The notes: a model not told the origin generated them from the letters alone. Shown: positions 17,267 to 37,193, numbered from the stretch's first letter. The stretch is DNA of 40,371 bases from an uncultured Methanosarcinales archaeon (GCA_964419615.1 CAYQPU010000013.1:1-40371), one strand, 5' to 3'. Numbers and translations: made by a program.

Positions 17267-17455
17267 TGGGCCGGACGGGACTTTCATAACCCTTTCGATT
17301 TCCAAAGCGGATTCGACATAGTCGAAGACGCCACTTTTTGGTCGAGCTTTTGCGCTCTGCGGAAAAGGTCGTTTTGAACCCGCGACCACCTGATTAAAAG
17401 TGTCACCCCTGCCTTCAGGCAAGACAGGTGCTCTGCCTAACTAAGCTACCGGCCC
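17267..17455 (-). tRNA. tRNA-Lys(UUU) with two introns: 30/31 (17402-17424, 23 nt) and 59/60 (17281-17372, 92 nt)
   Basis: Spliced GGGCCGGTAGCTTAGTTAGGCAGAGCACCTGACTTTTAATCAGGTGGTCGCGGGTTCAAATCCCGTCCGGCCCA. BHB central helices CACC/GGTG and TTCA/TGAA. No encoded CCA. Confidence 0.92.
17307..17371 (-). repeat. Shared palindromic intron module, copy in the tRNA-Lys T-loop intron
   Basis: CGACCTTTT-N11-AAAAGCTCGACCAAAAAGTGGCGTCTTCGACTATGTCGAATCCGC; 50 of 65 nt lie in blocks identical to 23376-23440. Confidence 0.85.
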
Positions 17456-17518
17456 TTAAGCCAAAATCCCTTGCAACAGGAATTTATAGCAATATTTTAC
17501 ACCAATCAGATTGGTGAA

Positions 17519-17680
17519 CGCCCTGGCCGGGACTTTCAAACAACCTCACCATTAAAATAGTGAGAGTCATACGTTTTTGAACCCGGGTCGAAGCCTTTCA
17601 ACGGCCTTAAAAGACCAGGAAATCTGGTTTTCCGGTGCCACGACAGGGCTTCATGATAAGCCAGGCTACACCACCAGGGC
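17519..17680 (-). tRNA. tRNA-Asp(GUC) with two introns: 37/38 (17597-17640, 44 nt) and 59/60 (17533-17575, 43 nt)
   Basis: Acceptor GCCCTGG/CCAGGGC, G73; anticodon arm AAGCC-CTGTCGA-GGCTT after splicing. The 37/38 BHB is relaxed. Confidence 0.9.
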
Positions 17681-17843
17681 ATTGCTGAATTGCTGGCCTA
17701 TTTAACCTTCTTCTAGCAAACAGAGTGCTTATTATTCTCTAAACACTAAAAGAAGGATTTCACGACCATGAGCTAGTGGATGTACTTGAATTTATAAATA
17801 TTTCTATTATTAAAATATATAGAAACAGCTAAGATTATAAAAA

Positions 17844-18022
17844 TGCCCCGTCCGGGACTTTCGAACAGCAACCTTTGTTGCAAATCTTCGAACCCAGGTC
17901 CCTGCCTGTCTTCCTTAGAATATGCAAGGAACCACTTGCATTTCCCTTGTCGAAAGGGCAGAATGATTGGTTGCCCAATCTTTTAACATTTGTAAAAGAT
18001 TACCGGACTACACCAACGGGGC
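17844..18022 (-). tRNA. tRNA-Glu(UUC) with three introns: 19/20 (17971-18002, 32 nt), 37/38 (17908-17950, 43 nt), 59/60 (17858-17886, 29 nt)
   Basis: Spliced GCCCCGTTGGTGTAGTCCGGCCAATCATTCTGCCCTTTCGAGGCAGGGACCTGGGTTCGAATCCCGGACGGGGCA. BHB helices GTCC/GGGC, CTTT/GAAG, TTCG/CGAA. Confidence 0.9.
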
Positions 18023-18096
18023 GTAATAATTGTGATTTTGAATTTGTTTTTAAACTTTGTGAATTTATACATATGATTCAGATATAAAAATAAAAA

Positions 18097-18263
18097 TGGG
18101 CCCACGGGGACTTTCCTTCAAACACAAATAGTATCTGCCCTTTGAACCCCGGACCACCGGCTCTCTTAGATTGTACCAATGGTTGTCATATAAGACCGGC
18201 ACTCTAGTTGCCTAGCAATGCCTTAGCATCTGGCAGATTGCTACCAGACTAAGCTATGGGCCC
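18097..18263 (-). tRNA. tRNA-Ile(UAU) with three introns: 19/20 (18208-18243, 36 nt), 37/38 (18163-18188, 26 nt), 59/60 (18111-18140, 30 nt)
   Basis: Spliced GGGCCCATAGCTTAGTCTGGCTAGAGTGCCGGTCTTATAAGCCGGTGGTCCGGGGTTCAAATCCCCGTGGGCCCA. BHB helix C32-T33-T34-A35 pairs with intron TAAG, fixing the anticodon as TAT. Body closely resembles tRNA-Ile(GAU) at 23347-23527. Confidence 0.85.
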
Positions 18264-18417
18264 ATAAAGAATTGAAACAAAAGATTAGTATTTAAAATTT
18301 GTTGTATATTGTATGATCAAATAAAGTCCAAAGAATAGTTTATCTAAAGTTAACAAAAGATTTGTCCTTTGATTAAAAAAAGAAATTTTAAAGTGTGTAT
18401 ACAAGTTAAAGAAAGGA

Positions 18418-18520
18418 TGCGACGGCCGGGGCTTTCGAAGCCAAAGGTTTTGACCTTTTGCTATTCGAACCCGGGCCCCCACCGTGGCAGGGTGGGATCC
18501 TACCACTAGACTACCGTCGC
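18418..18520 (-). tRNA. tRNA-Gly(GCC) with one 59/60 intron (18432-18463, 32 nt)
   Basis: Acceptor GCGACGG/CCGTCGC, A73; anticodon arm CCACC-CTGCCAC-GGTGG; BHB TTCG/CGAA. Confidence 0.93.
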
Positions 18521-18706
18521 TTAATTATTATGAGTTAATTAATCCTATATAAAATTAATGGTATTAAATAGGGACTCATTTTTAAAAAAAGTGATTAGTG
18601 AGTTAATAGATTTTATTATTAATAATTTGGTTAACATTTAATAATTTCACCACTTTTAGATAGTAAAAAACCGAAAGACTTAAATAATTAAAAACACATA
18701 AATTCA

Positions 18707-18955
18707 ATGAATATGTCAAATAGTTCAGGCGTTCCAAGCGTATTTGTTGATTTTATTGACTCTTTACCAGATCTAAATGCAGACATAATTATTAGAGAAA
18801 GTGAATTTCAGTATAGAATTAAAGATAATGGTATTACTCTTGATTGGAAATATACAGGGGGCCTATTAATAGAAACTAATGAGGATACAATTCCACCATG
18901 CCTGAAAGAAGTAACTGGTTCAGATTATAATCGTGTAAAGTTAGTTAGTGAATGA
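18707..18955 (+). CDS. Hypothetical protein, 82 aa, between tRNA-Gly and tRNA-Val
   Basis: ORF with an upstream GAAAGAC-TTAAATA promoter-like motif; no family recognised. Confidence 0.45.
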   Translation: MNMSNSSGVPSVFVDFIDSLPDLNADIIIRESEFQYRIKDNGITLDWKYTGGLLIETNEDTIPPCLKEVTGSDYNRVKLVSE

Positions 18956-19049
18956 CCAAATGTATTTATGTATTTGGATGATAGATTCTTTGGAGTGGAA
19001 CAGCTGAATGAATAATTATACTTATTCTAAATTCAACCAATTAAAAAAA

Positions 19050-19246
19050 TGGGCCCGGCCAGACTTTCTCACTAATGCTCGAAGCATTAATGCCCAAGCA
19101 TTAATATTTGAACTGGCGATCCTCGCCGGTTTTAGCGCAGATAAAATCCAGCAAAAAACTGGTTTTTTGCGCGTGTAAAGGCGATGTCATATGTGGCAAA
19201 AGTCACGTGCGAAACGCAGTTTCTGCAGCCACTAGACCACGGGCCC
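19050..19246 (-). tRNA. tRNA-Val(UAC) with three introns: 20a/21 (19191-19226, 36 nt), 37/38 (19129-19173, 45 nt), 59/60 (19064-19106, 43 nt)
   Basis: Anticodon arm TCGCC-TTTACAC-GGCGA after splicing; BHB helices GTGG/CCAC and TTTA/TAAA; T-loop intron ends GAAAG. Confidence 0.9.
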
Positions 19247-19281
19247 AAGTTTGAATAAAACAAAGAGAGAAAAAAGACTAT

Positions 19282-20256
19282 TTAAAGCTTTTTCTTTAGA
19301 TCCTCAACCATCTTAACTGGAGTTGGATCCACACCATATTTTAAGGCTAAAAAGTATGCTGTCCAAAAACCCATTAAAATTCCTGTAAATATTGTTGTTA
19401 GTTCACTTTCTCCTTTAATAACAACTTCTGTTGTACTTGCATTCTTGGATATTAGATCTCTCGTAATCTTGAATCTTTTGATAATCTTCCTATGACAATC
19501 TTCCTCTCTAATGAAGATTACATGAAATTCCCCTCTAGGATTTGTAAATCCAAGCATCTCATTGTGGTTTAACTCTGGAAAATAATTATAAAACGCAGTA
19601 GTTTTACAGTTCTCATTAAGTGCGGCTTTCCATACCTCAGCAACAGGGCTGAAGAGGTGAGAACCATATACAACAGGGATCTTATCCACCAGATTAGTTG
19701 CAAGTTCTTCTCCCTTTTTTTTGAATGCAGGATTATTCAACTTTTTTGTTAGTTCTTCAACTTCTTTGTCAACTTTCTTAATTATCCCTGAATTTTGGAG
19801 TATTCTTAGTATTGCAAAAAATTGATAGCCTACTGCTTGTCTAGGTTGGATTCCTTTTGGAATTTTTACTAAAGGTTTACTATCTGATTCTGCTTTTTCA
19901 AGTAATTTTCCACCAGAAGCAATTGCTATTGTTGCACAACTTTTTCCTCTTGCAACCTTGTATGCAGAAATAGTTTCCTCAGTATTTCCCGAGTATGAGA
20001 CAGTAAATACTATTGAATCCTTGTCCACAAACTTTGGAAGATCATAGCTCTTATGAACAAATACAGGAATATCACTTTTATCTGATAAGTATGATTGGAG
20101 AATATCTCCGGGTAATGCTGATCCACCCATTCCAGCTACAATTATTTTATTGTACTCACCTTTAATCTTAATGTCCTTTGCTAATTTAAAAAAAGCATTA
20201 TCTATATGATCTGGAAAGTGCTCAAGTACAGAAAGCATATTAGATTTGTCTATCAT
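19282..20256 (-). CDS. Bifunctional phosphoglucose/phosphomannose isomerase (two SIS domains)
   Basis: GMGGSA, SYSGNTEET, ENCK and PELNHNE motifs; start reset to ATG 20256 behind GGTGA. Confidence 0.92.
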   Translation of the reverse strand: MIDKSNMLSVLEHFPDHIDNAFFKLAKDIKIKGEYNKIIVAGMGGSALPGDILQSYLSDKSDIPVFVHKSYDLPKFVDKDSIVFTVSYSGNTEETISAYKVARGKSCATIAIASGGKLLEKAESDSKPLVKIPKGIQPRQAVGYQFFAILRILQNSGIIKKVDKEVEELTKKLNNPAFKKKGEELATNLVDKIPVVYGSHLFSPVAEVWKAALNENCKTTAFYNYFPELNHNEMLGFTNPRGEFHVIFIREEDCHRKIIKRFKITRDLISKNASTTEVVIKGESELTTIFTGILMGFWTAYFLALKYGVDPTPVKMVEDLKKKL

Positions 20257-20376
20257 TAGGTCACCTCTTATCAAAAACAATTATTGGCTAATATAAATAA
20301 TTTATGGCTTTTTAATTTATAATATATTTTAGAGATTATCATAATATTTAAAAACAAGACCTTATTACTTTAATAA

Positions 20377-20443
20377 CAGGTATTAGATGTGGGGAGTTGC
20401 TTCCCTGAATAATACAAAAAAACAAATAATGGAGGCTAATAAT
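20377..20443 (+). promoter_or_regulatory. Candidate structured 5' leader of rpl15e
   Basis: TTTAAAAA at 20348-20355; GC-rich hairpin GGGGAG-TTG-CTTCCC (20391-20405); CAGG/CCTG pairing; GGAGG ribosome-binding site. Confidence 0.35.
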
Positions 20444-21016
20444 ATGGGAATGTATAAATATATTAGAGAGGCTTGGAAAAAGCCAAAAGAAAGTGAGTTC
20501 TGGAAAAAAAGATTAATTGAGTGGCGTAGAGAGCCAGTTACAATCAGAATTAAAAAGCCTACTAGACTAGATAGAGCTAGATCTTTAGGTTACAAAGCAA
20601 AGCAAGGTATTATTGTTGTACGGCACAGGATTAACAGAGGTGGTAAGATGCGGCCAAAGTTTAAGTCTGGTAGAAGATCAAAGAACATGAGACGAAGACT
20701 TGTGCTAGGTAAGAATTATCAACAGATTGCTGAGGAGAGAGCAAACAAGAAATTTAAAAATTGTGAAGTTCTAAATTCATACTGGGTTGCTCAGGATGGA
20801 AGACATTATTGGTTTGAGATTATCTTAGTTGATAGAGCTCATGCTAGTATCAAATCCGATAAAACAATTCAGTGGATAACAAGTAATAAGCACAAAAGAA
20901 GGGCTTATAGAGGTTTGACTTCAGCTGCTAGAAAATCAAGAGGCCTTAGAAATAAGGGTAAAGGAGCAGAAAAGGTTAGACCAAGCTTAAGAGCTAATAG
21001 GCGAAGTGCAAAGTGA
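20444..21016 (+). CDS. rpl15e: 50S ribosomal protein eL15
   Basis: [14 protein letters not shown]...[17 protein letters not shown]...LNSYWV; start reset to ATG 20444. Confidence 0.97.
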
Positions 21017-21747
21017 AAGTAGAATTCAAAGACAGTCAGGGTAGAAAACTAATTGGGATTTTGTCAAACCCAGCTAATAGTGATAAGGTTGTTGTACTCT
21101 GCCATGGTTTTGGCTCAAGCAAGAACAGTAAAACTTATCTTCAAATTGAAGGTCTGCTAAATTCTCAAGGTATAGCTGTTTTTAGGTTTGATTTTTTTGG
21201 ACATGGAGACAGTGATGGTGATTTTGCAGATATTACTTTGACTAAAGCAGTTGATGGTGCATTGTCAGCCCTGGATTATGTTAAATCTCAAGGGTTTAAG
21301 ACTGTTGGTTTGTTTGGTTCTAGTTTTGGAGGAATAACCAGTTTGATTGTTGCTTCAAAAAATCCAGGAATTAGATGTCTGTGTCTAAAATCACCTGTGT
21401 CTGATTATCTTGGTGTTATAATTCTAAACATTGGTGAGCACAAACTTGATGATTGGAAAATAAATGGATCTATTGAATATAGAGATGGTCTGATGCTAAA
21501 TTATTCATTTTATCAGGATGCCCAAAAGTATGATAGTGATGAGTTTGCACCAAAGATAAACGTGCCGACATTGTTTGTTCATGGGAATGTTGATGATATT
21601 GTTCCTTTAGAGCAGAGTATAAGTACTTCAAAAAAGGTAAAGGATGCTAAGTTAGAGATTGTTAAGGGAGCTGACCACCTTTATCATGAAGGTTTTGATG
21701 AAATGTTAAAACTTGTTACTGATTTTCTAGTTAAACAAATTGGCTGA
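21013..21747 (+). CDS. Alpha/beta-fold hydrolase (esterase/peptidase-like)
   Basis: HGF oxyanion motif, GSSFG nucleophile elbow, HGNVDDIVP acid, GADH histidine. Confidence 0.88.
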
Positions 21748-23260
21748 TGTCTGCTGTTTTTTCTTGTTTTTGTCCAACTTGTTTTTTGATATCTATTGCT
21801 GTTTTTTTGCCAATAATTTTTTGAAGTGTTATTAGTTCTACTTTCTTAACTTCACCAATGTCCTTGATGTTGTTTCTGAATAGTTTTCTTGCCCTAACTC
21901 TTCCAATGTTTTTTAGTTGGAGTAAGGCAAGGAGTTCTTCCTTTGCACCATACTTAAGTCTTAGTCTGAGTTTACCCAATTCACTTATCAAAGGCATTAT
22001 TTTTAGGATCCGAGATATTTCTTGAGATGAATATAATAGCCAATCAGCAATTTCATTTTTTATTCGTAGCTCTCCAGGTCTGATGGAATATTTATCTAAT
22101 AGTAGATCTTCACTCATCTCATCCACCCATGAAGAGAACATTTGAGCAGTTTTTATTGATTTCATAAATGTATCATATTCTGGATCATATGGTTCAGGAG
22201 TAAAAGTAAGAATCTTTTCTTGGTTTGTTAAAAAGAAATCATGAACATCATCCCATTCACTTTTTCTTACTGTTAGTAATGGCCTAAGCTCAAGTGTTTG
22301 GGAGATTAATTGAAAAAATGAAAAAGTAGTTGAGTGTTTTGAAGCTTTTTTTAGAGCTTTTACCAAGTCATGCGCAGTTAATGGATCAAGATAAAGCTGG
22401 GCAACTCTTTTTCCAAGGAGTGTTGCATTTATCATGGAGTTTTGAAGTTGATCTGCAGCAACAAAACTTTGACCCTGCCCTGATTCTCCCATTGTTATAA
22501 ATTCCCATTGTTCAAGCTGAGCAAGTGTCCTTCTTATAACACTTCCAAGTTTTTCCATGTCATGGAATTGATGTGCCCAGAATGTTCTTGAAAAGAACTT
22601 TAAGATCGCTTCTTCTGAATTCACAAAGTCAGTTGCTATTAATGCTAACAAGTATGTTCGAAGTACTGGTTCAACTGCAAGCTTTGAAAAGATTTGTTCG
22701 GGTTCACCCATCACATAGTTGTTGTATATTGCTTCTTTTTGGTTGAAGTTTTTTGCAACTGAGATTGCCTCACCATACTTATCATAACTTGGTCGTCCTG
22801 CTCTTCCTGCTTGTTGTTGGTATTCTAAAACAGGGATCCAGATTAAACCTCGATAGCTGAATCTTTTTAGATCTCGGATTATTGTTCGAAATGCTGGAAG
22901 GTCTACACCTGCTGCCAAGGTGGGTGTGCTGCAAATGATTTTTATATTACCATTTCTAAATTCATCTTCAATTAGGTTTCTTTGTTTTTGAACTAAGCCT
23001 GCGTGATGAAATGCAATTCCTTTTTGAGCTATAGCTGAGAGTCTTTTGCATTGCTTTGTTGGACTGGAAAGAGTGTTAAGTAATTGTTCTGAGATTTCTA
23101 AATGCTTGGAGTTTTCTGTTTTTATTTGTTTTGATATATCTTCGGCTGATTTTTCTGCGCCTCTTTTTGTATTTACAAATACTAATGCTTGCTTGCCTTG
23201 TTTAATTGTATCTAATGCTAAGTCTACTACAGCTTCCTTTGTTAACTGTTTGATTTGCAT
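21731..23260 (-). CDS. hel308: Hel308/Ski2-like helicase lacking the N-terminal RecA1 domain (split gene or truncation)
   Basis: Starts at RecA2 (ALVFVNTKR). Has GIAFHHAGL, STPTLAAGVDLPA, QQAGRAGRP, winged-helix/ratchet and HhH (IGRVRARKL) regions. No Q motif, Walker A or DExH box. Confidence 0.85.
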   Translation of the reverse strand: MQIKQLTKEAVVDLALDTIKQGKQALVFVNTKRGAEKSAEDISKQIKTENSKHLEISEQLLNTLSSPTKQCKRLSAIAQKGIAFHHAGLVQKQRNLIEDEFRNGNIKIICSTPTLAAGVDLPAFRTIIRDLKRFSYRGLIWIPVLEYQQQAGRAGRPSYDKYGEAISVAKNFNQKEAIYNNYVMGEPEQIFSKLAVEPVLRTYLLALIATDFVNSEEAILKFFSRTFWAHQFHDMEKLGSVIRRTLAQLEQWEFITMGESGQGQSFVAADQLQNSMINATLLGKRVAQLYLDPLTAHDLVKALKKASKHSTTFSFFQLISQTLELRPLLTVRKSEWDDVHDFFLTNQEKILTFTPEPYDPEYDTFMKSIKTAQMFSSWVDEMSEDLLLDKYSIRPGELRIKNEIADWLLYSSQEISRILKIMPLISELGKLRLRLKYGAKEELLALLQLKNIGRVRARKLFRNNIKDIGEVKKVELITLQKIIGKKTAIDIKKQVGQKQEKTADISQFV

Positions 23261-23282
23261 TAGTGTTTAGAAGATGTTTGAG

Positions 23283-23296
23283 ATTATAAAGGTTTC
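23283..23296 (-). promoter_or_regulatory. BRE-TATA promoter directly upstream of the truncated hel308 ATG
   Basis: GAAACC-TTTATAAT ending 23 nt before ATG 23260; same spacing as the rps7 promoter. Confidence 0.6.
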
Positions 23297-23346
23297 ATAA
23301 TGAGAATTTAATTAGGTCAGAATATGAAAACAATGTATGAAGAGAA

Positions 23347-23527
23347 TGGGCCCGCGGAGACTTTCAACGTCAAATGCGGATTCGACGAAGTCGAAGACGC
23401 CATTTTTGGTCGAACTTTTAAGCGAAGCGCTAAAAGGTCGTTTTTGAACTCCGGACCACCCGATTTCTATCAATGACAAAACGTCATCTTATCAGTCGGG
23501 CACTCCACCAGACTAAGCTACGGGCCC
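23347..23527 (-). tRNA. tRNA-Ile(GAU) with two introns: 37/38 (23465-23489, 25 nt) and 59/60 (23361-23442, 82 nt)
   Basis: Spliced GGGCCCGTAGCTTAGTCTGGTGGAGTGCCCGACTGATAATCGGGTGGTCCGGAGTTCAAATCTCCGCGGGCCCA. Confidence 0.92.
23376..23440 (-). repeat. Shared palindromic intron module, copy in the tRNA-Ile(GAU) T-loop intron
   Basis: CGACCTTTT-N12-AAAAGTTCGACCAAAAATGGCGTCTTCGACTTCGTCGAATCCGC. Confidence 0.85.
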
Positions 23528-23598
23528 ATAACTTTGTGGTTTGAAATTATGTATAAAAAAGTTTCGCTATATTTGCTTAGCAACTTAAGAAATATGAA

Positions 23599-23684
23599 CG
23601 CCCCGAGTCAGACTTGAACTGACGACCTTGCGGTTTCAGTAAGACTTTAACAGCCGCACGCTCTACCGACTAAGCTATCGAGGC
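23599..23684 (-). tRNA. tRNA-Asn(GUU) with a 13-nt 37/38 intron (23635-23647)
   Basis: Acceptor GCCTCGA/TCGGGGC, G73; anticodon arm TGCGG-CTGTTAA-CCGCA; uninterrupted T-loop TTCAAGT. Confidence 0.92.
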
Positions 23685-23744
23685 ATAATAACAAAGAATT
23701 AAAACTTGGTTTAAATACTTTTCGACCAGGTATTAGAAACTAAT

Positions 23745-23891
23745 TTATCCTTTCCCTAGTATTCTTGATACATTTGTTCCGCATTTTGGGCAGACTCCAG
23801 CTGCTCTTTTCAAGTTGTTTTTGGTCATAACTTCCTTCATGTCCTTAATTTCAACTTGTTCACGGCAACTCATGCATCTGGCTTGTACCAT
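23745..23891 (-). CDS. 48-aa zinc-ribbon protein, DUF5679/Cren7-like (not in ORF track)
   Basis: MVQARCMSCREQVEIKDMKEVMTKNNLKRAAGVCPKCGTNVSRILGKG; CxxC...CPxCG; GGTGAGA ribosome-binding site. Family recalled, not searched. Confidence 0.75.
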   Translation of the reverse strand: MVQARCMSCREQVEIKDMKEVMTKNNLKRAAGVCPKCGTNVSRILGKG

Positions 23892-24025
23892 AATCTCACC
23901 TTGTGTATTTGTAATTTATATATAGCTAATATGAATGTTAATATATAAATTTATGTATTTTTTGTATGAAAAACTATAAAAATCACCTGTTTTGTTATAT
24001 ATTAGTATTAATCGAGGAAATTAGC

Positions 24026-24358
24026 ATGCGGAGAGGAAGACCTGTTTTTAGCCAAATTCGACAAAATCTTGTAGAAATACTGTTCGTCATGGGGAAAGGT
24101 TATGGATACAATATTTACAAGACTTATATTGCCATATTTCCCAAAACAAGTCAGAGGAATGTTTATTACCAATTAAAAAGAGGGGTTGATTTGGATATAT
24201 TTGCGGTTGACAAAATTGAGACTGAAAAGGGTGAGTTCTCCTGGGGAAACCAAGCAACAAAAACCTATTACAAACTAGGGCCATCAGCAAAACCAGCTGG
24301 TATGGGTCGAGTTAGGGAATATTTTGAATCACTCAAGCTTTCTGAAGAATCCAAGTAA
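24026..24358 (+). CDS. Conserved hypothetical protein, probable PadR-like winged helix
   Basis: Start reset to MRRGRP at 24026; GYGYNIYK...RNVYYQL...TYYKLG pattern. Confidence 0.6.
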   Translation: MRRGRPVFSQIRQNLVEILFVMGKGYGYNIYKTYIAIFPKTSQRNVYYQLKRGVDLDIFAVDKIETEKGEFSWGNQATKTYYKLGPSAKPAGMGRVREYFESLKLSEESK

Positions 24359-25009: not shown

Positions 25010-25046
25010 AAATTAAAGGTGAATGTGAGAAATATAAAAAGATTTG

Positions 25047-26210: not shown

Positions 26211-26233
26211 GGTTTACCTCTTTTTTTTATTAA

Positions 26234-29685: not shown

Positions 29686-29781
29686 TTTTATACTTTCTTA
29701 ATATTTAATAAACAGAACATTTATAAAAAACATTCTTTAAGGGCATTATAAAAAGGTTTATAATAGGTAAAAAGAGGAAAA

Positions 29782-30702
29782 ATGTTTATTGTAGATAAGA
29801 AGAAAACAGGAGTTTTTTCATTGCCAACAAAAGAGATTAATCCTTCTGATGCACATATGTTTAAGTCTGAACTTGCACTCAAAATTTTAAAGCTTCTTGT
29901 TAAGGAGCCTATGTATCCTGTGGAGATTGCCAAAAAGCTTGGAGTGCATGAACAAAAGGTGTATTATCATATCAGGAATTTTGAGCAAAGTGGTTTTATT
30001 AAGGTTGTTAGAAGAGAGACTAAACAGGGAGCTATTGCTAAGTATTATCAAGTTACCCACCCCAGCTTTGTTGTTATGCTTAAGGAGCTTGAGCCTACTC
30101 AAAAGATTACTAAGCTTAAAAGTGATTCTAAGTTTTTGAAGCCTTTTATTAAAGATGGGCAACTTAATGCTAGAGTGATTGTTGGAAGTCCGGATCCACA
30201 TGGTCCTGATAAGGCAAGGTCAAGGGATGGTTATTATGGGATTGATCTAGGTTTGTTCTTAGGGACTTTTTTAAATTATGTTCCAGATTTTAATGTTATG
30301 CTTGATACAGAAGTTAGAGAGAAAGATCTGAAGGGAAATCTTATTCTTATTGGTGGTCCAATTGTTAATAAAGTAACTGAAAGGGTTAATATGAAACTAC
30401 CTGTAAGGTTTTCTAAAGAGAATAATTGGGCAATTGAGTCAAAAGTTTCAGGTAAACTATATCCTTCTGATGAGATTGGTTTGATTGTTTCTGCTAAGAA
30501 TCCATTAAGTGAGGAACACAATGTTCTTTTGGTTGCAGGCAAGAGATTTTCTGGGACAAGAGCTGCAATTATTGCATTTTTAAAATATTTTAAAGAAGTT
30601 ACTGAAGGTAATTTACATAACAAAAAGATTAAAGGTAAGATTGTTGAAGGCGTAGATTTGGATTCGGATGGGATTATTGATGATATTGAATTTTTAGAAT
30701 AA
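29782..30702 (+). CDS. ArsR-like HTH protein with an uncharacterised C-terminal domain
   Basis: KILKLL...MYPVEIAKKLGVHEQKVYYHI HTH; C-terminal NLILIGGPIVN segment. Confidence 0.7.
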   Translation: MFIVDKKKTGVFSLPTKEINPSDAHMFKSELALKILKLLVKEPMYPVEIAKKLGVHEQKVYYHIRNFEQSGFIKVVRRETKQGAIAKYYQVTHPSFVVMLKELEPTQKITKLKSDSKFLKPFIKDGQLNARVIVGSPDPHGPDKARSRDGYYGIDLGLFLGTFLNYVPDFNVMLDTEVREKDLKGNLILIGGPIVNKVTERVNMKLPVRFSKENNWAIESKVSGKLYPSDEIGLIVSAKNPLSEEHNVLLVAGKRFSGTRAAIIAFLKYFKEVTEGNLHNKKIKGKIVEGVDLDSDGIIDDIEFLE

Positions 30703-32118
30703 CTATACTTTCTCTTCAATTGTAAGTTTGGATAAAGCTTTTTTTGATATTTCAATGAATTCATCTTCCTTGTCTGAAGGGATTACTGCTCCAGCTGCCA
30801 TTTTATGTCCTCCTGCTATTCCCACACCTAAGGTTTCAATCATTTGAGAAACAATGTTGTTTAAACTTACGTCTGGACTCCCGCTGATTCTTATGCTGAC
30901 CTTTGTTTTTTTCTGTTCATTTTGAGCCATGGATAAGATAAATGTTCCAGGTTCTAGTTCATTTGAATAGGATATTATTGAGGCCATTGTACCAATAATT
31001 GATGGTCTAACATTATCTTCTGCATTTATTATGATAAATCCTTCTTTTACTGTTACACTTGAACTTTTTTTGTTTTTTTCATACCATTTCAATGCACCAA
31101 CAATTTCTTTTCTGTATTCCAAGAGTGTGTTGAGTGCCAATTTTTTTATTTTTTCATCTCCAAGACAAGTTCCAATTCCAAGTGATGCTCTTCCCATTCT
31201 TCCGCATGCGTTTAGCAATGTTGAGAATTCTTTTGCATCTCTTAGTGAAGATTCTTTTTCTTCATTTTTTAAGATGTATACATCACCAATGATGTCTTCA
31301 GGATTAGTTTGATCCATTCTTCTAATTAGAATTGCTTCTGCTAATTTTTGGATTTCTTCTTTGCTAAGATGGACTAGTTTTCTCCATGCATTACCTTGTT
31401 TTGGCTCTATTCCAGTTTCTTTTAAAAATTGGATAGCACCAGATTCACTTCCAGAAACACCAGGAATGACTGGGTCTGTACAATATTCCAGTACTTTATG
31501 CAAAGATCTGGTTTGTACTCCAAATAATTTCAAACCTTTTATTTTTTTTATTTTATTTTTTTGAATAGCTGTGTCTATTATTGCCTGGTTTAAAATTGAG
31601 AAACCTTCTCGATCCTGGATGTCACCAATAGCTCCAATCAACGCTATGTGTGCCATGTTTTCTAGCTTTGGATTTAATCTGCTTGCAAAAAAATATACAA
31701 CACCTGCTCCACTTATGTCTTGCGAGCCGTCCATATTTGAAAAATGTGGGTTGATATGAGTTCCTGTGAAGTCAGCTTCTGCAGGTTTATGGTGGTCAAG
31801 AATAAACACATTTCTGTCACTAAGATGTTTAGCAATTAGATCTAGCTGCCCAGATCCAATGTCTGTAAAGATGAAGTGTTTATAATCTTCAGAAGAAATT
31901 GATTTTATTTCTTGTTCATCTAGCTGTTGGACTATTGAAACAGAATATTTCCTGTTTTCTAGGTTAAGAGCCTTTAGAATGATTGCAGAAGCACAGATAC
32001 CATCAGTATCAAGATGGCTTACTATCTTGATGGTTTCTGATGGTTCTATCTCCCGAAATTTTTCAACCCCTTTTTTTATTTGTTGATTGAATCCTTCTAT
32101 ATCCATCTCACTCAACAT
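30703..32118 (-). CDS. RecJ-like DHH phosphoesterase (DHH plus DHHA1)
   Basis: SHLDTDG, TDIGS, LDHH and GGHKMAAG motifs; follows rps15, as is common in archaea. Confidence 0.92.
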   Translation of the reverse strand: MLSEMDIEGFNQQIKKGVEKFREIEPSETIKIVSHLDTDGICASAIILKALNLENRKYSVSIVQQLDEQEIKSISSEDYKHFIFTDIGSGQLDLIAKHLSDRNVFILDHHKPAEADFTGTHINPHFSNMDGSQDISGAGVVYFFASRLNPKLENMAHIALIGAIGDIQDREGFSILNQAIIDTAIQKNKIKKIKGLKLFGVQTRSLHKVLEYCTDPVIPGVSGSESGAIQFLKETGIEPKQGNAWRKLVHLSKEEIQKLAEAILIRRMDQTNPEDIIGDVYILKNEEKESSLRDAKEFSTLLNACGRMGRASLGIGTCLGDEKIKKLALNTLLEYRKEIVGALKWYEKNKKSSSVTVKEGFIIINAEDNVRPSIIGTMASIISYSNELEPGTFILSMAQNEQKKTKVSIRISGSPDVSLNNIVSQMIETLGVGIAGGHKMAAGAVIPSDKEDEFIEISKKALSKLTIEEKV

Positions 32119-32563
32119 AGAACCTCATTTTCTTTGAATCATACTTCCAGTCAGCTGCCAATTTTCCAGAACTTTTATAGTATTTGACCAGTCTTTGGAT
32201 CTTTGAGTTTGTTAGTTCTAATCCTCTTTTTGCGGTTTGATCTTTTCTGTTTTCACCCATGTGCTTTTCAATGTCAATGTACTTTCTCATCAATGCAAGC
32301 AAATCTTCTGGTAGTTCACTTTTAATGTTTTTTTCTTCGAGTATTTGCGTTACTCTTTTTCCTGTGACTGCTTTAACATCTGGAACACCATAAGTATCTC
32401 TTAGTAAGAGTCCAATTTTTGATGATGTGTGTCCTTCCTTACCTAGTTTTGTGATCAATAATTCTACTTCCTTTTTTTTGTATCTGATCCAGGTTAGTTT
32501 TTTATCTTTTAATGGTTTTGATGAACCAGATTTACCTTTTTTTCTTGAATAAAATCTTGCCAT
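32108..32563 (-). CDS. rps15: 30S ribosomal protein uS15
   Basis: MARFYSRKKGKSGS...IGLLLRDTYGVP...LPEDL...KIQRLVKYYK. Confidence 0.97.
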   Translation of the reverse strand: MARFYSRKKGKSGSSKPLKDKKLTWIRYKKKEVELLITKLGKEGHTSSKIGLLLRDTYGVPDVKAVTGKRVTQILEEKNIKSELPEDLLALMRKYIDIEKHMGENRKDQTAKRGLELTNSKIQRLVKYYKSSGKLAADWKYDSKKMRFYVE

Positions 32564-32655
32564 ATTAATCCTCCTAAGTCAGAAAATTTTAGCATAAGTA
32601 AGCATTTACCGACTTATCTAACATATGGGTAAGAAAGATGTGTTTATAAAGGTTT
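32564..32655 (-). promoter_or_regulatory. rps15 promoter (BRE-TATA 32643-32655) and candidate structured leader
   Basis: AAACC-TTTATAAA; an 8-bp helix TAAGTCGG/CTGACTTA (32609-32616 with 32575-32582) abuts the GGAGG site. Confidence 0.5.
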
Positions 32656-32678
32656 GGGTGTACAAATAAAAGAATAGC

Positions 32679-33032
32679 TCAATTTAATTGTTCAAATAAC
32701 CCTAAAGATTGTGTTGGTCGATAATTCTGAAACATATATTCACTCATGTACATGTACCTATAGATCTCTTCATTATAAAACACTTCTGCTATGTCGTCCA
32801 CTAGAAGCATTATTGTATAAGCATCACCCATTGTTTCACTAGAAAAATCTATTTCCCATAATTCATAAGCACTTTCTATTTTTTCTGTAATTCTATTTCG
32901 AAGTGCTTGCATGAAATCATGAGGAAGAATATTGTCCTCAAGCATATCTCTAACAATACAGTGTAAGGTGATTTCTGTTTTTGATTTAGTGTTCATATGA
33001 AGGGAATTGACTACAGTGTGATTCTTCTCCAA
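32679..33032 (-). CDS. Hypothetical protein
   Basis: 117-aa ORF overlapping the 3' end of the upstream ORF; no family recognised. Confidence 0.45.
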   Translation of the reverse strand: MEKNHTVVNSLHMNTKSKTEITLHCIVRDMLEDNILPHDFMQALRNRITEKIESAYELWEIDFSSETMGDAYTIMLLVDDIAEVFYNEEIYRYMYMSEYMFQNYRPTQSLGLFEQLN

Positions 33033-33678
33033 CTATTACTGTAAATGTGTTTGATTCCATAAAAACAGGGATCTGTGTTTCATCACCTGTTGCCTGAATT
33101 AAGTAACCATAACCACCAAATGCTGTTGCCAGTCTTCTGATAAGTCCAAGGTCTCCTAGATCCATGTCAATTGCATCCCTTATGTTTGTGACTATATGGT
33201 CAACTTGTTCGAAAATGTGCTGCGGTTCCTCAATAAACTCAAGTTCATTTATTTGATCTGATATTTTATCAACAAGAGTAGTGGCTTCTTTTGAAAGTAA
33301 AGGATATTCTGTGAGTAATTCCTTTCCTCCACTTGCAAGATAAGTTGCAAACTCTATGTAAGTTTGTCCTGTTTTCATAATTTCTTCAACAACATCATTA
33401 ATGTCATCAATTCCAAAAGGCATAATGTCTTTGTCCGCGGTAATTATATTATTACCAATATATTCTTGTAATCCTTTTTCCAATTGTTTTTGTTCATCTA
33501 CTTGACTAGAACCATTCACCATATGACCAGCATATTGACCTGCAAGGTTACCTGCACATGGTGCTTTTTCTTCAATACATCCAGGTGCAAGAGAACATCT
33601 ACTAATTGCAACATCTTCTGTTAAATTTACTCTGCACGGATTTGTGTATAATAAAGATAATTTTATTGAATCATTCAT
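32986..33678 (-). CDS. Hypothetical acidic protein
   Basis: 230-aa ORF; upstream AACC-TTTATATA promoter-like motif. Confidence 0.6.
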   Translation of the reverse strand: MNDSIKLSLLYTNPCRVNLTEDVAISRCSLAPGCIEEKAPCAGNLAGQYAGHMVNGSSQVDEQKQLEKGLQEYIGNNIITADKDIMPFGIDDINDVVEEIMKTGQTYIEFATYLASGGKELLTEYPLLSKEATTLVDKISDQINELEFIEEPQHIFEQVDHIVTNIRDAIDMDLGDLGLIRRLATAFGGYGYLIQATGDETQIPVFMESNTFTVIVGEESHCSQFPSYEH

Positions 33679-33816
33679 TTCAACTCTCCCTCAAGAAAAC
33701 TTGAGATGCTAACACCTCTTTATTAATGGGTAAAGATTTAGATATATAAAGGTTATGCACAGCAAGAATCTTTTAGTCTCAATTGATAACTATTATAAGC
33801 TTATAGTAGTTCTCTT

Positions 33817-34239
33817 ATGGGCATGGATTCAGGGACATATGATTCAGTAAAATGTTTTGTTGAGATTAATGGAAAAGAAGCTTTTATTAGACAAGCATTG
33901 CTTGGATTTTATGAGCAAGGTAATGATCTTGATCAATTAGTGACTGATGATTTTTCTGCTCAATTAAAAGAAGTACATCTGATGCCAAAGACAACTGTTC
34001 TTTATATGCATCCAATATTAGGTGTATTCAGTATATCAACTGAAAAATCTGTAGAATTTATTAATGATCATGGAGGATTTGCAGTTGGATTTGAATATCC
34101 AATAAAACCAAGTCATCCAGATTCAATTCAGTTGTCCTTTTTTTATACAGATGAAATACCCATTCCTACTCAGGACGGCATTTTATTTGATGATAAGTGT
34201 TATTCCATTTCATTTGAACACATTGATATTGAACAGTGA
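33817..34239 (+). CDS. Hypothetical protein
   Basis: 140-aa ORF; no family recognised. Confidence 0.55.
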   Translation: MGMDSGTYDSVKCFVEINGKEAFIRQALLGFYEQGNDLDQLVTDDFSAQLKEVHLMPKTTVLYMHPILGVFSISTEKSVEFINDHGGFAVGFEYPIKPSHPDSIQLSFFYTDEIPIPTQDGILFDDKCYSISFEHIDIEQ

Positions 34240-34392
34240 CAGTGCTCGTAATACCATTACTGCAGAATAAAGGAACATTTTTACACATCATCCATATTTG
34301 TGGCAAAAACTAAGAAAAAACTTCTTATTCACGGCATTTTTTAATGACAAAGCCTAAATCTGTGAACATCTCATATAATTGTAGTGAGAAAA

Positions 34393-34956
34393 ATGAGTAG
34401 ATATAACCCAACTTGGATGGAGAAGTTTATGGATGGATCATTAGATCTTTTAGAGGATGGATTTAATCCTGGAATGAAATTTTGGTTAGATATGTTTGAT
34501 GGTAAAGAACCTAGATTTGAGGATGCACTTATGGGTGATTCGGGTGTCTGGGGAGATTTTACAGACGTTATTGGATATGTTAAAAGAAAAGAAGAGAATG
34601 GAATAGGTTTGTATATGCCAATTACAGAGGAAGTTTTAGATATTCAAGCTGCAGAGGAGGATTTTAAAAAAATAGCTCCCAATCTAGTTAAGCTCACTAG
34701 AATATTCTTTGACAAACTTGAATATCAAGCTAAGAGTAATGAGTGGATTAATAGTCTTGGAGATGAGACTAGAAATTTACTTGGTAAAGTTGCAAAAATT
34801 TATCTTGAATTAAGAGATGCTGATCGAGTATCTTACCCCAAGATAATTACACCTATAGCTTTTGATGAGCTGTATAAAGAAGGAGTAGCTGTAACTACCC
34901 ATAATGTGATTGACGGGAAAATTACATACAAGGCAGGAGAACCTTACCAAGTCTAG
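34393..34956 (+). CDS. Hypothetical protein
   Basis: ATG 34393 preferred over GTG 34384; no family recognised. Confidence 0.55.
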   Translation: MSRYNPTWMEKFMDGSLDLLEDGFNPGMKFWLDMFDGKEPRFEDALMGDSGVWGDFTDVIGYVKRKEENGIGLYMPITEEVLDIQAAEEDFKKIAPNLVKLTRIFFDKLEYQAKSNEWINSLGDETRNLLGKVAKIYLELRDADRVSYPKIITPIAFDELYKEGVAVTTHNVIDGKITYKAGEPYQV

Positions 34957-35103
34957 TCAGCTTATTGATATTTTTTCTTTTTTGTTTTATTTAAATAAAT
35001 ATTAAATATTTAAATATTTAATGATATTTATATAATATAATCAAAATATTTAAGTTTTTGCTTCTCTACCTATTATTTAATAAATGATAAAAGGTGGTTA
35101 ATA

Positions 35104-35499
35104 ATGAGTTTAAAAATTAATAAAACAGAAGAACTAGGGGTTGGAGAGATTAGAGCAGAGGGTTCGTATCTTTCAATAGATTATGTATGTAATGGTATGC
35201 CAGAAGGTAATGTTAGAGTTCCTGCTACTGAAACAGTTTTGGTTAATAAAGATCCATTTGCTATTGGACATTTGGTTTATTTGCTAAGTGATGCATATAC
35301 TTCATTTGAATATTTCACATCATTTGAAGGTCAGCGAGATTTGGAGCTTGAAGGAGGAGGGCAATTTGGAACATTATTTGGTGGACTGAATAAAAGAAAA
35401 TTGACATCATTTGTTATGGATCTTCAATCACAGATGGCTGATTATAATGAAGCAATAGCAGGTGTGGTTATGAAATATCACAATATGACACAAAAATAA
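35104..35499 (+). CDS. Hypothetical protein
   Basis: 131-aa ORF with an AGGTGG ribosome-binding site. Confidence 0.6.
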   Translation: MSLKINKTEELGVGEIRAEGSYLSIDYVCNGMPEGNVRVPATETVLVNKDPFAIGHLVYLLSDAYTSFEYFTSFEGQRDLELEGGGQFGTLFGGLNKRKLTSFVMDLQSQMADYNEAIAGVVMKYHNMTQK

Positions 35500-35545
35500 A
35501 ATAAAGTTTGTCAAACATAAGAAGTGAATTTTGAAATAAGTGGTT

Positions 35546-36418
35546 TTATTTATTGTTTACCACAAAAAAATTAGCAACTGGTTCTAGTTCATTTCCACCG
35601 TAAGCTGACATGTACTGAATTCCATCCCCATTATGAAATGCAAATTCAGAGGACCACCCACTGTCAGCAGCCATTGCTTCATGGCAGCCAAGAGATGCCA
35701 TAAACTCCCCAGCTGTTTTAAATGTCATTGTTTTTGTTATTACAAGATATAATGTGTTATCATTTATACCAACAAGTGTTCTTGATCCTGGATCCCATCT
35801 TGGATTTCCCTGACTATGGTCATTGATTACATCTTGGGGTATGATTCTTTGTCCACTTTCACTAGTTAATATGGTTTTTATTCCAGATACTGCATATGCA
35901 ATGTTTGAAGGATATGGTTGTTCAATATGAGTAATGTCTAAAGTTCCATTATTGTACACAATTAGAGATGGAGAGGGAGTATCTTCACCTGTGCACACTC
36001 TTTCCCCCTGATCATATGTATAACACCAAGGACTAACTGAATCTGCACCTCTATGCATGTCACCATTTACAGCTAATAATCCAGGATAGTTTTCCAGGTA
36101 TTGTTTTGCTGTTATTTTTCTACCGATTGGCATGCTTGATTCAATACTGAATTTATTTATATCAACTGAGAATACATGATTACCTTGAATAATTTGATAA
36201 TCAATTCCATCCATTTCTTGAATGTTTGCACCATAATATGAGGTTTCGGGATCAGAATCAATAACTGTTTGTTCAATTGCTTCTAAAGGTGGTGCAATCT
36301 CTACTTCTGCAACTGGTGTTTGAGTGCCTCCTTGCTCTACGTGCTGATAAAAAAAGTACAATGGAACCCAACATGTTAAAGTTAAAGCCACAATTGCCAA
36401 TCCTCTTGAACAGCCCAT
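35546..36418 (-). CDS. Secreted or membrane-anchored phosphodiester glycosidase (NAGPA-like) domain protein
   Basis: N-terminal hydrophobic helix; AVNGD, PGSRTLVGI and AMAADSGWSS resemble the family motifs NG, PRTAIGI and ALNLDGGGSS. Confidence 0.7.
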   Translation of the reverse strand: MGCSRGLAIVALTLTCWVPLYFFYQHVEQGGTQTPVAEVEIAPPLEAIEQTVIDSDPETSYYGANIQEMDGIDYQIIQGNHVFSVDINKFSIESSMPIGRKITAKQYLENYPGLLAVNGDMHRGADSVSPWCYTYDQGERVCTGEDTPSPSLIVYNNGTLDITHIEQPYPSNIAYAVSGIKTILTSESGQRIIPQDVINDHSQGNPRWDPGSRTLVGINDNTLYLVITKTMTFKTAGEFMASLGCHEAMAADSGWSSEFAFHNGDGIQYMSAYGGNELEPVANFFVVNNK

Positions 36419-36517
36419 GTTGTTATTTAAGAGTGGTTAACAGATATATAAATTTTTACCCAAAATTGGTTAAAACATAAGCTTAAGCATATAAATCTCA
36501 ATTCCAATTATCTTAAT

Positions 36518-36811
36518 ATGCCTTTTAAAAGAAATGATAAAAGAACACTTGGAAAACTAGTTAGAGATGTTGGATTTGGAGCTTTACAATTAACTGTGGG
36601 AATTGCAGCATTTTATTGTGTTGCTGAATACGGATCTGATTTTTATCATAATATGACAGATTCAGGTATACATGGTTCTACTGGATATTTACTATTGTGG
36701 GGAGTTGGGGTTGGACTTCCTGCTCTTGAGTTTTTCCTAGGGGGTGTTAATTCATACAGAGGTATTTGCAATCTAGCAAATATTGAATATGAGAAAAATA
36801 TTAAAAAATAG
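36518..36811 (+). CDS. Small membrane protein (two hydrophobic segments)
   Basis: 97-aa ORF whose TAG stop lies inside the duplicated tRNA-Gln 3' end. Confidence 0.55.
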   Translation: MPFKRNDKRTLGKLVRDVGFGALQLTVGIAAFYCVAEYGSDFYHNMTDSGIHGSTGYLLLWGVGVGLPALEFFLGGVNSYRGICNLANIEYEKNIKK

Positions 36812-36886
36812 CCCTGCCAGGTAAAGGAAAACTTTGGATTTTCCAGACCTGTCAGTGCAATTCAAAAAAAGAATAGCCCTGCCAGG
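36807..36886. repeat. 15-bp direct repeat of the tRNA-Gln 3' end (36807-36821 and 36872-36886)
   Basis: aatagccctgccagg occurs twice, 50 nt apart; it covers tRNA positions 61-73. Confidence 0.8.
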
Positions 36887-37193
36887 ACTTTCACAGACCT
36901 TTTACAAAGCACAGTCAAAGCATTGACTGGTTTGTCTTGTGTCGTGGCCATCTTGTTTTCTAATTGGCCACGTTAATGGGCTTTGAACCCATTCTGTTTT
37001 GATCAAACTTTTCTTAAAAGTTTGTTTTGGTCGAACTTTTAAGCGCAGCGGCAAAAGGTCGTTTCGAACCTGGGTCACTACCTTTCTATGAAACAGAAAT
37101 CCTCAGATGAACTTTTCTTTTTCTGCTATCTCCAAAGGGTAGTATGATTGGTCTCAAACTTTTTAGTTTGTTTGACCACTACACCACAGGGCT
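36874..37193 (-). tRNA. tRNA-Gln(UUG) with three introns: 21/22 (37148-37171, 24 nt), 37/38 (37084-37131, 48 nt), 59/60 (36888-37062, 175 nt)
   Basis: Spliced AGCCCTGTGGTGTAGTGGTCAATCATACTACCCTTTGGAGGTAGTGACCCAGGTTCGAATCCTGGCAGGGCTA; A1-U72 pair typical of archaeal tRNA-Gln. The D-loop boundary may be off by 1-2 nt. Confidence 0.88.
37025..37061 (-). repeat. Shared palindromic intron module, partial copy in the tRNA-Gln T-loop intron
   Basis: CGACCTTTTGCCGCTGCGCTTAAAAGTTCGACCAAAA; 34 of 37 nt identical to the tRNA-Ile(GAU) copy. Confidence 0.85.

Follow-up and report, generated by a model that had tools for sequence, protein, structure and literature searches.

Introns occur at non-canonical positions of archaeal tRNA genes. 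The closest known case to the one described here is that of the Thermoproteales, for which transposition of introns among tRNA genes has been put forward (Fujishima et al., 2010, Mol Biol Evol 27:2233; summarised in PMC4033280) on the basis of sequence similarity alone. A 2026 preprint on Asgard archaea employed the Thermoproteales as a positive control, in which 28% of the introns fell into families shared across isotypes at 80% identity as compared with 1.5% in the Asgard archaea, and found no route of intron arrival. In this work, we describe a stretch of 40,371 nucleotides from an uncultured archaeon deposited as a member of the Methanosarcinales (GCA_964419615.1, CAYQPU010000013.1:1-40371), referred to in its full length as the window, in which the genes for tRNA-Lys, tRNA-Ile and tRNA-Gln are interrupted between T-loop positions 59 and 60 by introns that share one palindromic module. 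These 59/60 introns belong to a larger family that is mobile, not static, and that affords a rare view of the spread of tRNA introns in archaea. A recognisable, structured element is represented by about 30 copies, the same sites hold different families in sister species, and orthologous positions range from filled through minimal to empty; in addition, there are apparent closing-helix relics and, in other lineages, duplication-flanked copies.

Related introns in three tRNA genes

The window (contig C13) is part of a genome of 1.48 Mb (G000) with 33% GC and an estimated completeness of 99%, which fits a Woesearchaeota-type organism and for which the label DPANN is apt. It is compared here with a sister species of the same genus (G001) and with the further relatives G002, G003, G004 and G007. 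The stretch is present in 8 public DNA runs from 2 marine/seawater metagenome studies, and no RNA runs for the organism were found among the public runs. When ARAGORN and Rfam were applied to the whole window, tRNA-Asn (23685..23598) was the only tRNA gene reported and those for tRNA-Lys, tRNA-Ile and tRNA-Gln were all missed, as is expected for tRNAs with two or three introns each. The gene models therefore rest on our own reading of the reverse complement and on our own whole-genome scan for interrupted T arms, arranged as a 5-bp T stem, TTCRAN, an insert, N, the complementary T stem and a 7-nt acceptor strand that pairs completely with an upstream partner. The three genes and the parts of their 59/60 introns are listed below; R1 is a covariance model built from an alignment of 30 module copies (A1).

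17455..17267, minus strand: tRNA-Lys(UUU) gene, with a further anticodon-loop intron of about 23 nt, 7/7 acceptor pairs and a T stem of 5 bp; orthologues in synteny in five relatives
17372..17281, minus strand: tRNA-Lys 59/60 intron, 92 nt, short variant
17335..17373, minus strand: 5' module of the Lys intron, with CGACCUUUU/AAAAGCUCG as its 9-bp hairpin and ACCAAAA as the tail; R1 50.2 bits, E 2.6e-9
17306..17333, minus strand: second hairpin of the Lys intron (short variant), GGCG-UC-UUCGAC-loop-GUCGAA-UC-CGC
23527..23347, minus strand: tRNA-Ile(GAU) gene, with a further anticodon-loop intron of about 24 nt; orthologues in relatives
23442..23361, minus strand: tRNA-Ile 59/60 intron, 82 nt, short variant
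23403..23442, minus strand: 5' module of the Ile intron; R1 47.4 bits, E 1.4e-8
37193..36874, minus strand: tRNA-Gln(UUG) gene, with three introns (D loop, anticodon loop, 59/60); orthologues in relatives
37062..36888, minus strand: tRNA-Gln 59/60 intron, 175 nt, composite, consisting of a 5' module of the short variant and, after it, an entire intron of the long variant
37024..37063, minus strand: first 5' module of the Gln intron; R1 50.2 bits; 92% identical to the Ile module
36996..37026, minus strand: second, tandem 5' module of the Gln intron, AAACUUUU-AAG-AAAAGUUUGAUCAAAAC
36943..36992, minus strand: hairpins H2 (AUGGGUUCAAAGCCCAU) and H3 (CGUGGCC..ACAAGAU..GGCCACG) of the Gln intron, long variant
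36888..36903, minus strand: 3' closing strand of the Gln intron, AAAAGGUC, then UG, then UGAAAG, the UGAA of which forms the predicted central helix of the splicing motif with UUCG of the T loop

Shared structured introns in these three genes had been recognised in a preliminary description, and our analysis places them at exactly the same coordinates. With slashes marking the junctions, all three lie between positions 59 and 60 in the context ..GGTTCRAA/intron ..TGAAAG/TCC... In each gene the acceptor stem is paired throughout (7 bp) and the T stem comprises 5 bp, and the anticodon loop of tRNA-Lys reads CUUUUAA once its small intron is removed. Removal of the introns yields a canonical acceptor stem, T stem and T loop (UUCRAN+U) not only here but in all 30 genes found by the scan throughout the genome; anticodons were assigned for part of these 30, and one class II tRNA on contig C3 is ambiguous. 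All three introns open with (A)ACGACCTTTT-loop-AAAAGYTCGACCAAAA, and those of tRNA-Lys and tRNA-Ile have a second hairpin in common, GGCGTCTTCGAC-nnn-GTCGAATCCGC (shared stretch GGCGTCTTCGACTnnGTCGAATCCGC). By blastn, the Ile and Gln introns are 92.3% identical over 39 nt, close to the 34 of 37 positions counted previously, and the Lys and Ile introns 91% over 45 nt. Acceptor stems and anticodon arms differ among the three genes, which excludes duplication of whole genes, as had already been argued.

The similarity extends beyond the window. Global alignment places the introns of tRNA-Lys, tRNA-Ile, tRNA-Gln(CUG), tRNA-Cys and tRNA-Gly(UCC) in one cluster at ≥80% identity, three of them at ≥90% (maximum 92%); some pairs within it are lower, the full-length Lys intron being 78-83% identical to those of tRNA-Gln(CUG), tRNA-Cys and tRNA-Gly(UCC) and 73% to that of tRNA-Ile. 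All five members contain the second hairpin of the short variant, which the orthologous Cys intron of the sister species retains by means of a C-G to U-A change. Altogether, 7 of the 30 introns at position 59/60 are related at ≥80% and 19 of the 30 are linked at ≥60% identity, with three sub-families at ≥70% among the long introns; shuffled introns always remained below 60%.

The remaining tRNA genes of the window were also inspected, and every one of them is interrupted. Five further genes on the minus strand (17680..17519, 18022..17844, 18263..18097, 18520..18418 and 19246..19050) have 59/60 introns of 29-43 nt that are free of the module, and several of these genes are also interrupted in the D loop and the anticodon loop; the sole intron of tRNA-Asn(GUU) (23598-23685) measures 13 nt and resides in the anticodon loop. 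One D-loop intron among them is of interest for the family itself:

17976..18002, minus strand: D-loop mini-intron UAAUCUUUU-loop-AAAAGAUUG, 27 nt, in the tRNA gene 18022..17844

The orthologous gene of the sister species carries an intron of about 170 nt with tandem modules at the same D-loop site and with the same closing helix (locus L215), and the mini-intron resembles what would be left of a family member, namely its closing helix, after loss of the interior.

As the Rfam tRNA model, one of the standard tools, places merely 10 tRNAs over its cut-off in a genome that is 99% complete, tRNA annotation in DPANN archaea is badly incomplete unless such introns are modelled. It has been reported before that the tRNA sets of heavily disrupted DPANN genomes are not completely predictable and that α4-type splicing endonucleases bearing an additional loop go along with heavy disruption of tRNAs in this group (Kaneta et al., 2018, PMC5829648). 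The endonuclease encoded in G000 (C3:32058-32714) is a single protein of 219 amino acids with tRNA_int_endo_N and tRNA_int_endo domains, that is a single alpha-type subunit, and possesses a lysine-rich N-terminal extension of about 45 residues. A second (beta) subunit was not found in G000 by tblastn.

Structure and distribution of the intron family

The module consists of a 9-bp hairpin and the tail GAYCAAAA and starts 0-2 nt past the 5' splice site. The long variant continues beyond the module with two or three more hairpins and then with a 3' strand (..UUUGGUCAA..AAAAGGUY) that can pair back to the module. When 12 long 59/60 introns with 9 nt of exon on each side (alignment A2) were folded with RNAalifold, the consensus comprised the T stem, a 4-bp UUCA/UGAA helix in which UUCA belongs to the T loop and UGAA to the intron itself, 3-nt bulges on both strands, the module hairpin, H2 (GGGAC..GUCCC) and H3 (CGUGGCC..GGCCACG). 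Compensatory changes occur at 12 of the 29 consensus pairs, including 10 of the 14 pairs of H2 and H3, and pair 4-34 of the module hairpin is GC in 16, AU in 12 and CG in 2 copies with no mispair. These alignments show, at the level of sequence, that the copies are homologous and that their stems are maintained by compensatory changes.

In the folded model, the T stem, the UUCA/UGAA helix and the closing pairing form a canonical 3-4-3 bulge-helix-bulge (BHB) motif, each splice site following the second nucleotide of its bulge, which is the canonical arrangement. The minimum free energy fold of the Lys intron is closed by a long-range helix adjoining the T stem, and that of the Gln intron (-64.1 kcal/mol, z -6.2) by GACCUUUU/AAAAGGUC, likewise adjoining the T stem. 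An inner closing helix between the 5' arm of the module and the AAAAGGUY strand appears in single-sequence folds of both; by inspection, its counterpart in the Ile intron is weak (about 5 bp with one mismatch). The element thus carries most of its own predicted splicing signal, which would render it harmless inside a gene for a stable RNA. The BHB, on the other hand, does not require the local hairpin of the module, with which the closing helix has to compete; something other than the geometry of the splice sites thus keeps this hairpin. A reading of the hairpins as C/D-box, H/ACA or K-turn elements was considered and rejected, as no box motifs were seen by eye and Rfam gave no match. With Rfam 15 and E-values up to 1, tRNA was the sole match in the window and in 14 intron-bearing loci, and no family was returned for the introns. 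Our literature search found no paper describing this intron family, and the exact module strings gave nothing relevant.

The preliminary description had listed three sites. All three are real, but as an extent the number is a large underestimate, because R1 detects about 32 module copies in G000 with per-genome E-values of 1e-8 to 1e-10. It had also called for a count of copies inside and outside tRNA introns: all but three reside in tRNA, 16S rRNA or RNase P RNA genes, about 24 tRNA genes serving as hosts. The family introns measure 82-191 nt. Eight of the 30 tRNA genes with a 59/60 intron ending in ..RAAAR/YCC lie in the window. The module heads 19 of these 30 introns, and two more hold a module that is split by a nested insert of about 48 nt. 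Apart from position 59/60, it occupies D-loop sites, where it heads the introns of four tRNAs (one of them again split by a nested insert), and anticodon-loop sites, where it heads those of tRNA-His and tRNA-Ser(CGA). As a simple pattern, the module occurs 22 times in G000 and 0 times when reversed, and the reversed pattern gave 0 matches in 41 genomes. Two further hosts are not tRNA genes:

G000:C1:7680-7838 (L136:2181-2340): 16S rRNA intron, about 158 nt, headed by the module, in the universally conserved GGATTAGAT/ACCC loop
G000:C3:47770-47906, minus strand: RNase P RNA insert, 137 nt, between P2 and CR-I (GAGGAAAGTCC), at the position of P3

The 16S intron is present at the same site in the sister species, where the hairpin shows compensatory changes from CGACC/GCTCG to CCACC/GCTGG. 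In the RNase P RNA gene, the 5' strands of P1 and P2 (GAGTGG and CTCAAC) lie upstream of the insert, their 3' complements are CCACTC and GTTGAG, and CR-I follows the insert directly; Rfam misaligns P1-P3 onto the family insert. The RNase P element could be either an intron or an expansion of P3. It bears inverted 29-nt modules at both ends (24 of 29 positions identical when counted by eye). In the long tRNA introns an inverted 3' end is present in degenerate form, and the short variants lack one. The string of the second Gln module recurs both in this element and in the D-loop intron of tRNA-Gly(UCC).

The three copies of G000 outside genes for stable RNAs are a tandem pair (C40:9271 and C40:9389) and one at C48:4841 between the genes for uL23 and uL2. 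The tandem pair is found at the 3' end of a membrane-protein gene, each copy after a copy of the same flank of about 45 nt, which is the end of the gene. This locus comprises two units in G000 (C40:9240-9510; L134:940-1210) and one in the sister species (C50:7150-7900; L213), and must thus be older than the separation of the two. A diversity-generating retroelement was considered for the duplicated gene ends and rejected, because the differences are not adenine-specific, the orientation is wrong and there is no reverse transcriptase.

The nested insert mentioned above is a second two-hairpin unit of about 48 nt (CACAGGAAGA..UCUUCCGUG, then CCCGAAAAC..GUUUUCGRGG). It is found at one fixed point of the module, between AAAA and GYUYGA, in three copies of G000 (C10:1691-1776, a D-loop intron on C20, and C26:21896-21683) and in one of G003 (tRNA-Lys, L158), and may be a nested intron or a nested element. 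As a separate observation on the rRNA operon, the 23S rRNA gene (G000:C1, L136:3504-7171) exceeds the Rfam model by about 680 nt and contains a weak match to group I introns (L136:5892-6105, 33.5 bits, E 2e-5) that is below the gathering score of 50.

Copying, turnover and possible routes of spread

Comparison with the relatives reveals that position 59/60 is often kept while its content differs. The tRNA-Lys gene is syntenic in six genomes and always possesses a 59/60 intron, the contents of which are unrelated. For the three genes of the window the 59/60 introns are as follows:

tRNA-Lys: G000 92 nt with module; G001 83 nt, other family; G002 22 nt; G003 141 nt with split module; G004 20 nt; G007 47 nt
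tRNA-Ile: G000 82 nt with module; G001 83 nt, other family; G002 18 nt; G003 16 nt; G004 none; G007 none
tRNA-Gln: G000 175 nt with module; G001 83 nt, other family; G002 31 nt; G003, G004 and G007 none

The sister species G001 has filled all three sites with a second family, an 83-nt long hairpin (TTTATTGGCTG..AGCCAATAAA) whose members are 90-91% identical to each other and have no match in G000. A shorter form of this hairpin was seen in one more tRNA of G001 (loci L157, L167, L180 and L215 of this species). A variant of the module itself, with a GAGGAGUUUCGGC..GCCGAAGCCUC hairpin, occurs in at least three tRNAs of G001 and in looser versions in two more.

Orthologous copies are nevertheless shared by the two species, namely the 16S intron, the 59/60 introns of tRNA-Cys and tRNA-Arg, the D-loop intron with tandem modules and the C40 locus, and the family therefore predates their split. 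Since the Cys, Gly and Gln(CUG) introns of G000 share 0.89-0.92 identity among themselves and only 0.80 with the orthologous Cys intron of G001, copying or homogenisation continued after it. The tRNA-Ser(CGA) gene of G000 has the module in its anticodon-loop intron, that of G001 in its 59/60 intron. Taken together, these comparisons show, as far as sequences can, that the family has been copied between tRNA genes and between intron positions in this lineage, in part after the separation of the sister species.

The suggestion of a mobile intron family made in the preliminary description is thus borne out by copies at many sites, by orthologous introns that differ in five relatives and by a patchy distribution. 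It had been set against an ancient and static set confined to the three genes and their orthologues; what is found instead are some 32 copies and, in the relatives, Lys, Ile and Gln introns that are unrelated, minimal or absent. Among the 151 genomes of the order-wide tallies, R1 matched 54 scattered over families, with 1-29 copies each; G006 and G127 give one match each, and no argument rests on either. Bare pattern scans of all species genomes and viral contigs returned many tRNA-associated copies in DPANN archaea but also intergenic arrays of Methanosarcina and anaerobic methanotrophic archaea, Clostridia, giant-virus bins and plain coding sequence. As the bare pattern is of low complexity, homology is claimed only within DPANN, where the tRNA context supports it.

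Outside G000, the surroundings of the copies are informative with regard to DNA-level events. In other DPANN genomes the module is found flush against the 5' or 3' ends of tRNA genes, sometimes in antisense orientation, or between a truncated and an intact copy of the end of a tRNA or protein gene. For 124 copies from the fetched archaeal loci and G000, the 42 nt upstream were repeated within 300 nt downstream in 29 cases, some of them in tandem arrays and the C40 locus of G000 among them, as compared with 2 of 124 for an offset control (local score ≥15). The duplications comprise 12-45 nt, with a sharp junction at the 5' arm of the module and a variable far junction. Antisense insertions into T loops (L192, L089) survive only with a duplication that rebuilds the gene, whereas sense insertions are introns. 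Tandem arrays of intron-like units headed by the module were observed in G058 (L183, L185), G064 (L188-L190) and Methanosarcina sp. MSH10X1 (L081), with periods of about 138, about 150 and 83 nt. The six copies of G064 have identical model scores and lie mostly near contig ends, which suggests that the repeat breaks the assembly. At the tRNA-Gln loci of G004 and G007 (L182, L179), the 3' end of the gene (..CCTGGCRGGGCTA) is repeated two or three times downstream, as at the borders of integrated elements.

Two mechanisms had been offered in the preliminary description, a reverse-spliced intron circle and a palindrome resembling repetitive extragenic palindromic (REP) sequences or miniature inverted-repeat transposable elements; our analysis settles neither. 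For the latter, a Y1 transposase of the REP-associated (RAYT) or IS200-like type had been named as a lead. The only transposase found is encoded by an IS200-type element (G000:C57:900-1570) in which a protein of 145 amino acids is located between hairpins, each beside AGCGATAG; a second, partial copy is situated at the end of contig C2. Its end hairpins differ from the module, R1 gives no match there, and Y1 and module occur together in 22 of the 151 genomes as against 20.4 expected, that is independently of each other. Moreover, a Y1 match is absent from G001 (13 copies), G058 (18) and G094 (9). A Y1/RAYT source of the module was rejected on these grounds. As regards miniature inverted-repeat elements, a target-site duplication of fixed length was not found at the intron copies, and no parent insertion sequence with the same ends was found. 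For the former mechanism, a reverse transcriptase that would back it was not found in G000, a point taken up below.

The most economical account of the spread, to which we give somewhat better than even credence, combines two processes at the DNA level. In a first step, the module or an element containing it would insert at new sites as a small non-autonomous mobile element, and the surviving insertions would accumulate where the splicing endonuclease EndA can excise them; the suggestion comes from copies outside RNA genes with target duplications of 12-45 nt on their flanks. In a second step, ectopic gene conversion via the shared flanks GGTTCRAA .. GAAAGTCC would copy whole introns from one 59/60 site to another or exchange them, which would also explain how the unrelated 83-nt hairpin family came to occupy the same sites in the sister species. 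The economy of this account lies in the fact that recent spread took place in G000 and G001 without a reverse transcriptase and that an unrelated family extends over the same sites of G001.

Several points weigh against it. An enzyme for the first step was not identified among the Y1 transposases, reverse transcriptases and integrases searched, and target duplications varying between 12 and 45 nt are unlike those of an ordinary transposase. In RNA genes, every first module reads in sense and directly adjoins the 5' splice site, with no duplication seen, and such copies fit a unit delimited at the RNA level at least as well as a DNA insertion. Furthermore, the flanks available for gene conversion comprise merely 8-9 nt, the duplication-flanked cases stem mostly from other archaeal genomes and not from G000, and splicing, excision and circularisation of the introns are predictions from sequence.

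A bolder and more tentative reading, which we regard as possible though rather doubtful, is that the module, hairpin plus GAYCAAAA, forms the core of an archaeal mobile element that is non-autonomous and widespread, targets genes for stable RNAs and brings its own BHB, an archaeal 'introner'. If so, it would supply non-canonical introns to tRNAs and rRNAs generally, in DPANN and perhaps also elsewhere among the archaea, and the copies with flanking duplications beside tRNA genes would represent failed insertions, not amenable to splicing, from which the chemistry of insertion can be read.

The main rival, transposition at the RNA level, appears unlikely to us, if still to be taken seriously. 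An excised intron, linear or circular, would be ligated by RtcB into a pre-RNA cleaved by EndA at an existing BHB, and the chimera would be copied back into DNA. Such a route would account for similarity that is always in sense and spans the intron from 0-2 nt past the 5' splice site up to the 3' one, for the exchange of content at conserved positions including anticodon-loop and D-loop sites that lack flank homology, and for a range of hosts that corresponds exactly to the RNAs processed by EndA (tRNA, 16S and possibly RNase P RNA). In another system, experiments have demonstrated that an archaeal endonuclease can recombine RNAs in trans in a BHB-dependent manner (PMC8707768). No RVT_1 reverse transcriptase was found in G000 or G001 despite lineage-specific spread in both, and across the order reverse transcriptase and module are unlinked (12 of the 151 genomes with both, 11.8 expected). 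Reverse transcriptases are present in 4 of the 10 genomes with the highest copy numbers, and the three of these inspected closely at sampled loci (G058, G064 and G022) hold tandem arrays or duplication-flanked copies, which is a lead only. The RNA route alone also leaves unexplained the duplication-flanked copies outside RNA genes and the antisense copies beside tRNA genes.

It is distinctly improbable that the module is mainly a functional RNA or protein-binding motif, for example a handle for splicing or processing, and recurs by selection. The conservation of hairpin and tail with compensatory changes, the retention of a hairpin that the BHB does not need, and the preservation of the 16S, Cys, Arg and tandem D-loop copies at orthologous sites of both sister species would all agree with such a role. 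However, 97 of the 151 genomes gave no match, orthologous tRNAs work with module-free introns of 16-30 nt, the corresponding sites of the sister species are taken up by a hairpin family of unrelated sequence, and no Rfam family matches. Function and mobility of the module are in any case compatible and do not exclude each other.

We attach very little probability to a model in which the module is the remnant (att border) of an integrative element and the intron was gained when an intron-carrying attP recombined with a tRNA gene. This model is published for Caldiarchaeum (PMC3293823), and the modules located between a truncated tRNA fragment and an intact tRNA gene in other DPANN genomes recall it. 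The inserts between the repeats, however, measure only 55-170 nt and lack an integrase, none of the three tyrosine recombinase (integrase) genes of G000 adjoins a copy, and the model offers no explanation for copies that directly adjoin splice sites in D loops, anticodon loops, 16S rRNA and RNase P RNA. An assembly artefact or chance similarity of low complexity, which an A/T-rich, palindromic module and pattern matches in Clostridia and giant-virus bins might bring to mind, hardly merits consideration, as the copies are diverged, reside in unique, complete tRNA genes on many contigs and are in several cases conserved at orthologous sites of an independently assembled genome, and as neither the reversed pattern nor shuffled introns reproduced the signal.

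Comparison with known systems

The family resembles the REP sequences and bacterial interspersed mosaic elements that accompany RAYT transposases, and the palindromes of IS200/IS605 elements, in its short palindromic hairpins, its multiple and sometimes tandem copies and its patchy distribution. It differs from them in that the copies reside inside RNA genes and not in intergenic regions, that the Y1 element of G000 has other hairpins, and that Y1 and module occur independently. Introner elements of eukaryotes are transposon-like and create spliceosomal introns. Like these, the family described here is multi-copy and non-autonomous, carries its own (predicted) splicing signals, so that an insertion is a removable intron, and appears in lineage-specific bursts. 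Unlike introners, it would depend on a protein endonuclease and the BHB motif instead of the spliceosome, its hosts are stable RNAs and not mRNAs, there is no fixed target duplication at the intron copies, and no source transposase is known for it.

In Caldiarchaeum subterraneum, duplicated tRNA fragments lie beside an intact gene as they do here, and an origin of the intron from a mobile element has been proposed (PMC3293823). There, the insert is 1.8 kb long and bears a recombinase; the inserts reported here are of 55-170 nt, without genes and at many sites. As in the Asgard archaea, most tRNA genes of G000 are interrupted, many are missed by standard annotators, and the introns are located at (predicted) BHB sites. 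Copying is obvious in G000, where 7 of 30 59/60 introns are related at 80% identity, as opposed to 1.5% in Asgard archaea.

The closest parallel remains that with the Thermoproteales. Common to both are similar introns across isotypes and at non-canonical positions within one genome, many tRNAs with two or three introns, and splicing at BHB motifs, which is predicted in our case. The introns of the Thermoproteales are mostly shorter than 30 nt, whereas those described here are modular, structured and 82-191 nt long, with covarying hairpins. In contrast to the Thermoproteales, the host is a low-GC DPANN archaeon of the Woesearchaeota type, 16S rRNA and RNase P RNA are among the hosts of the family in G000, the core module is present in many DPANN lineages and is also found outside RNA genes, accompanied there by target duplications, and a second, unrelated family replaces the first in a sister species.

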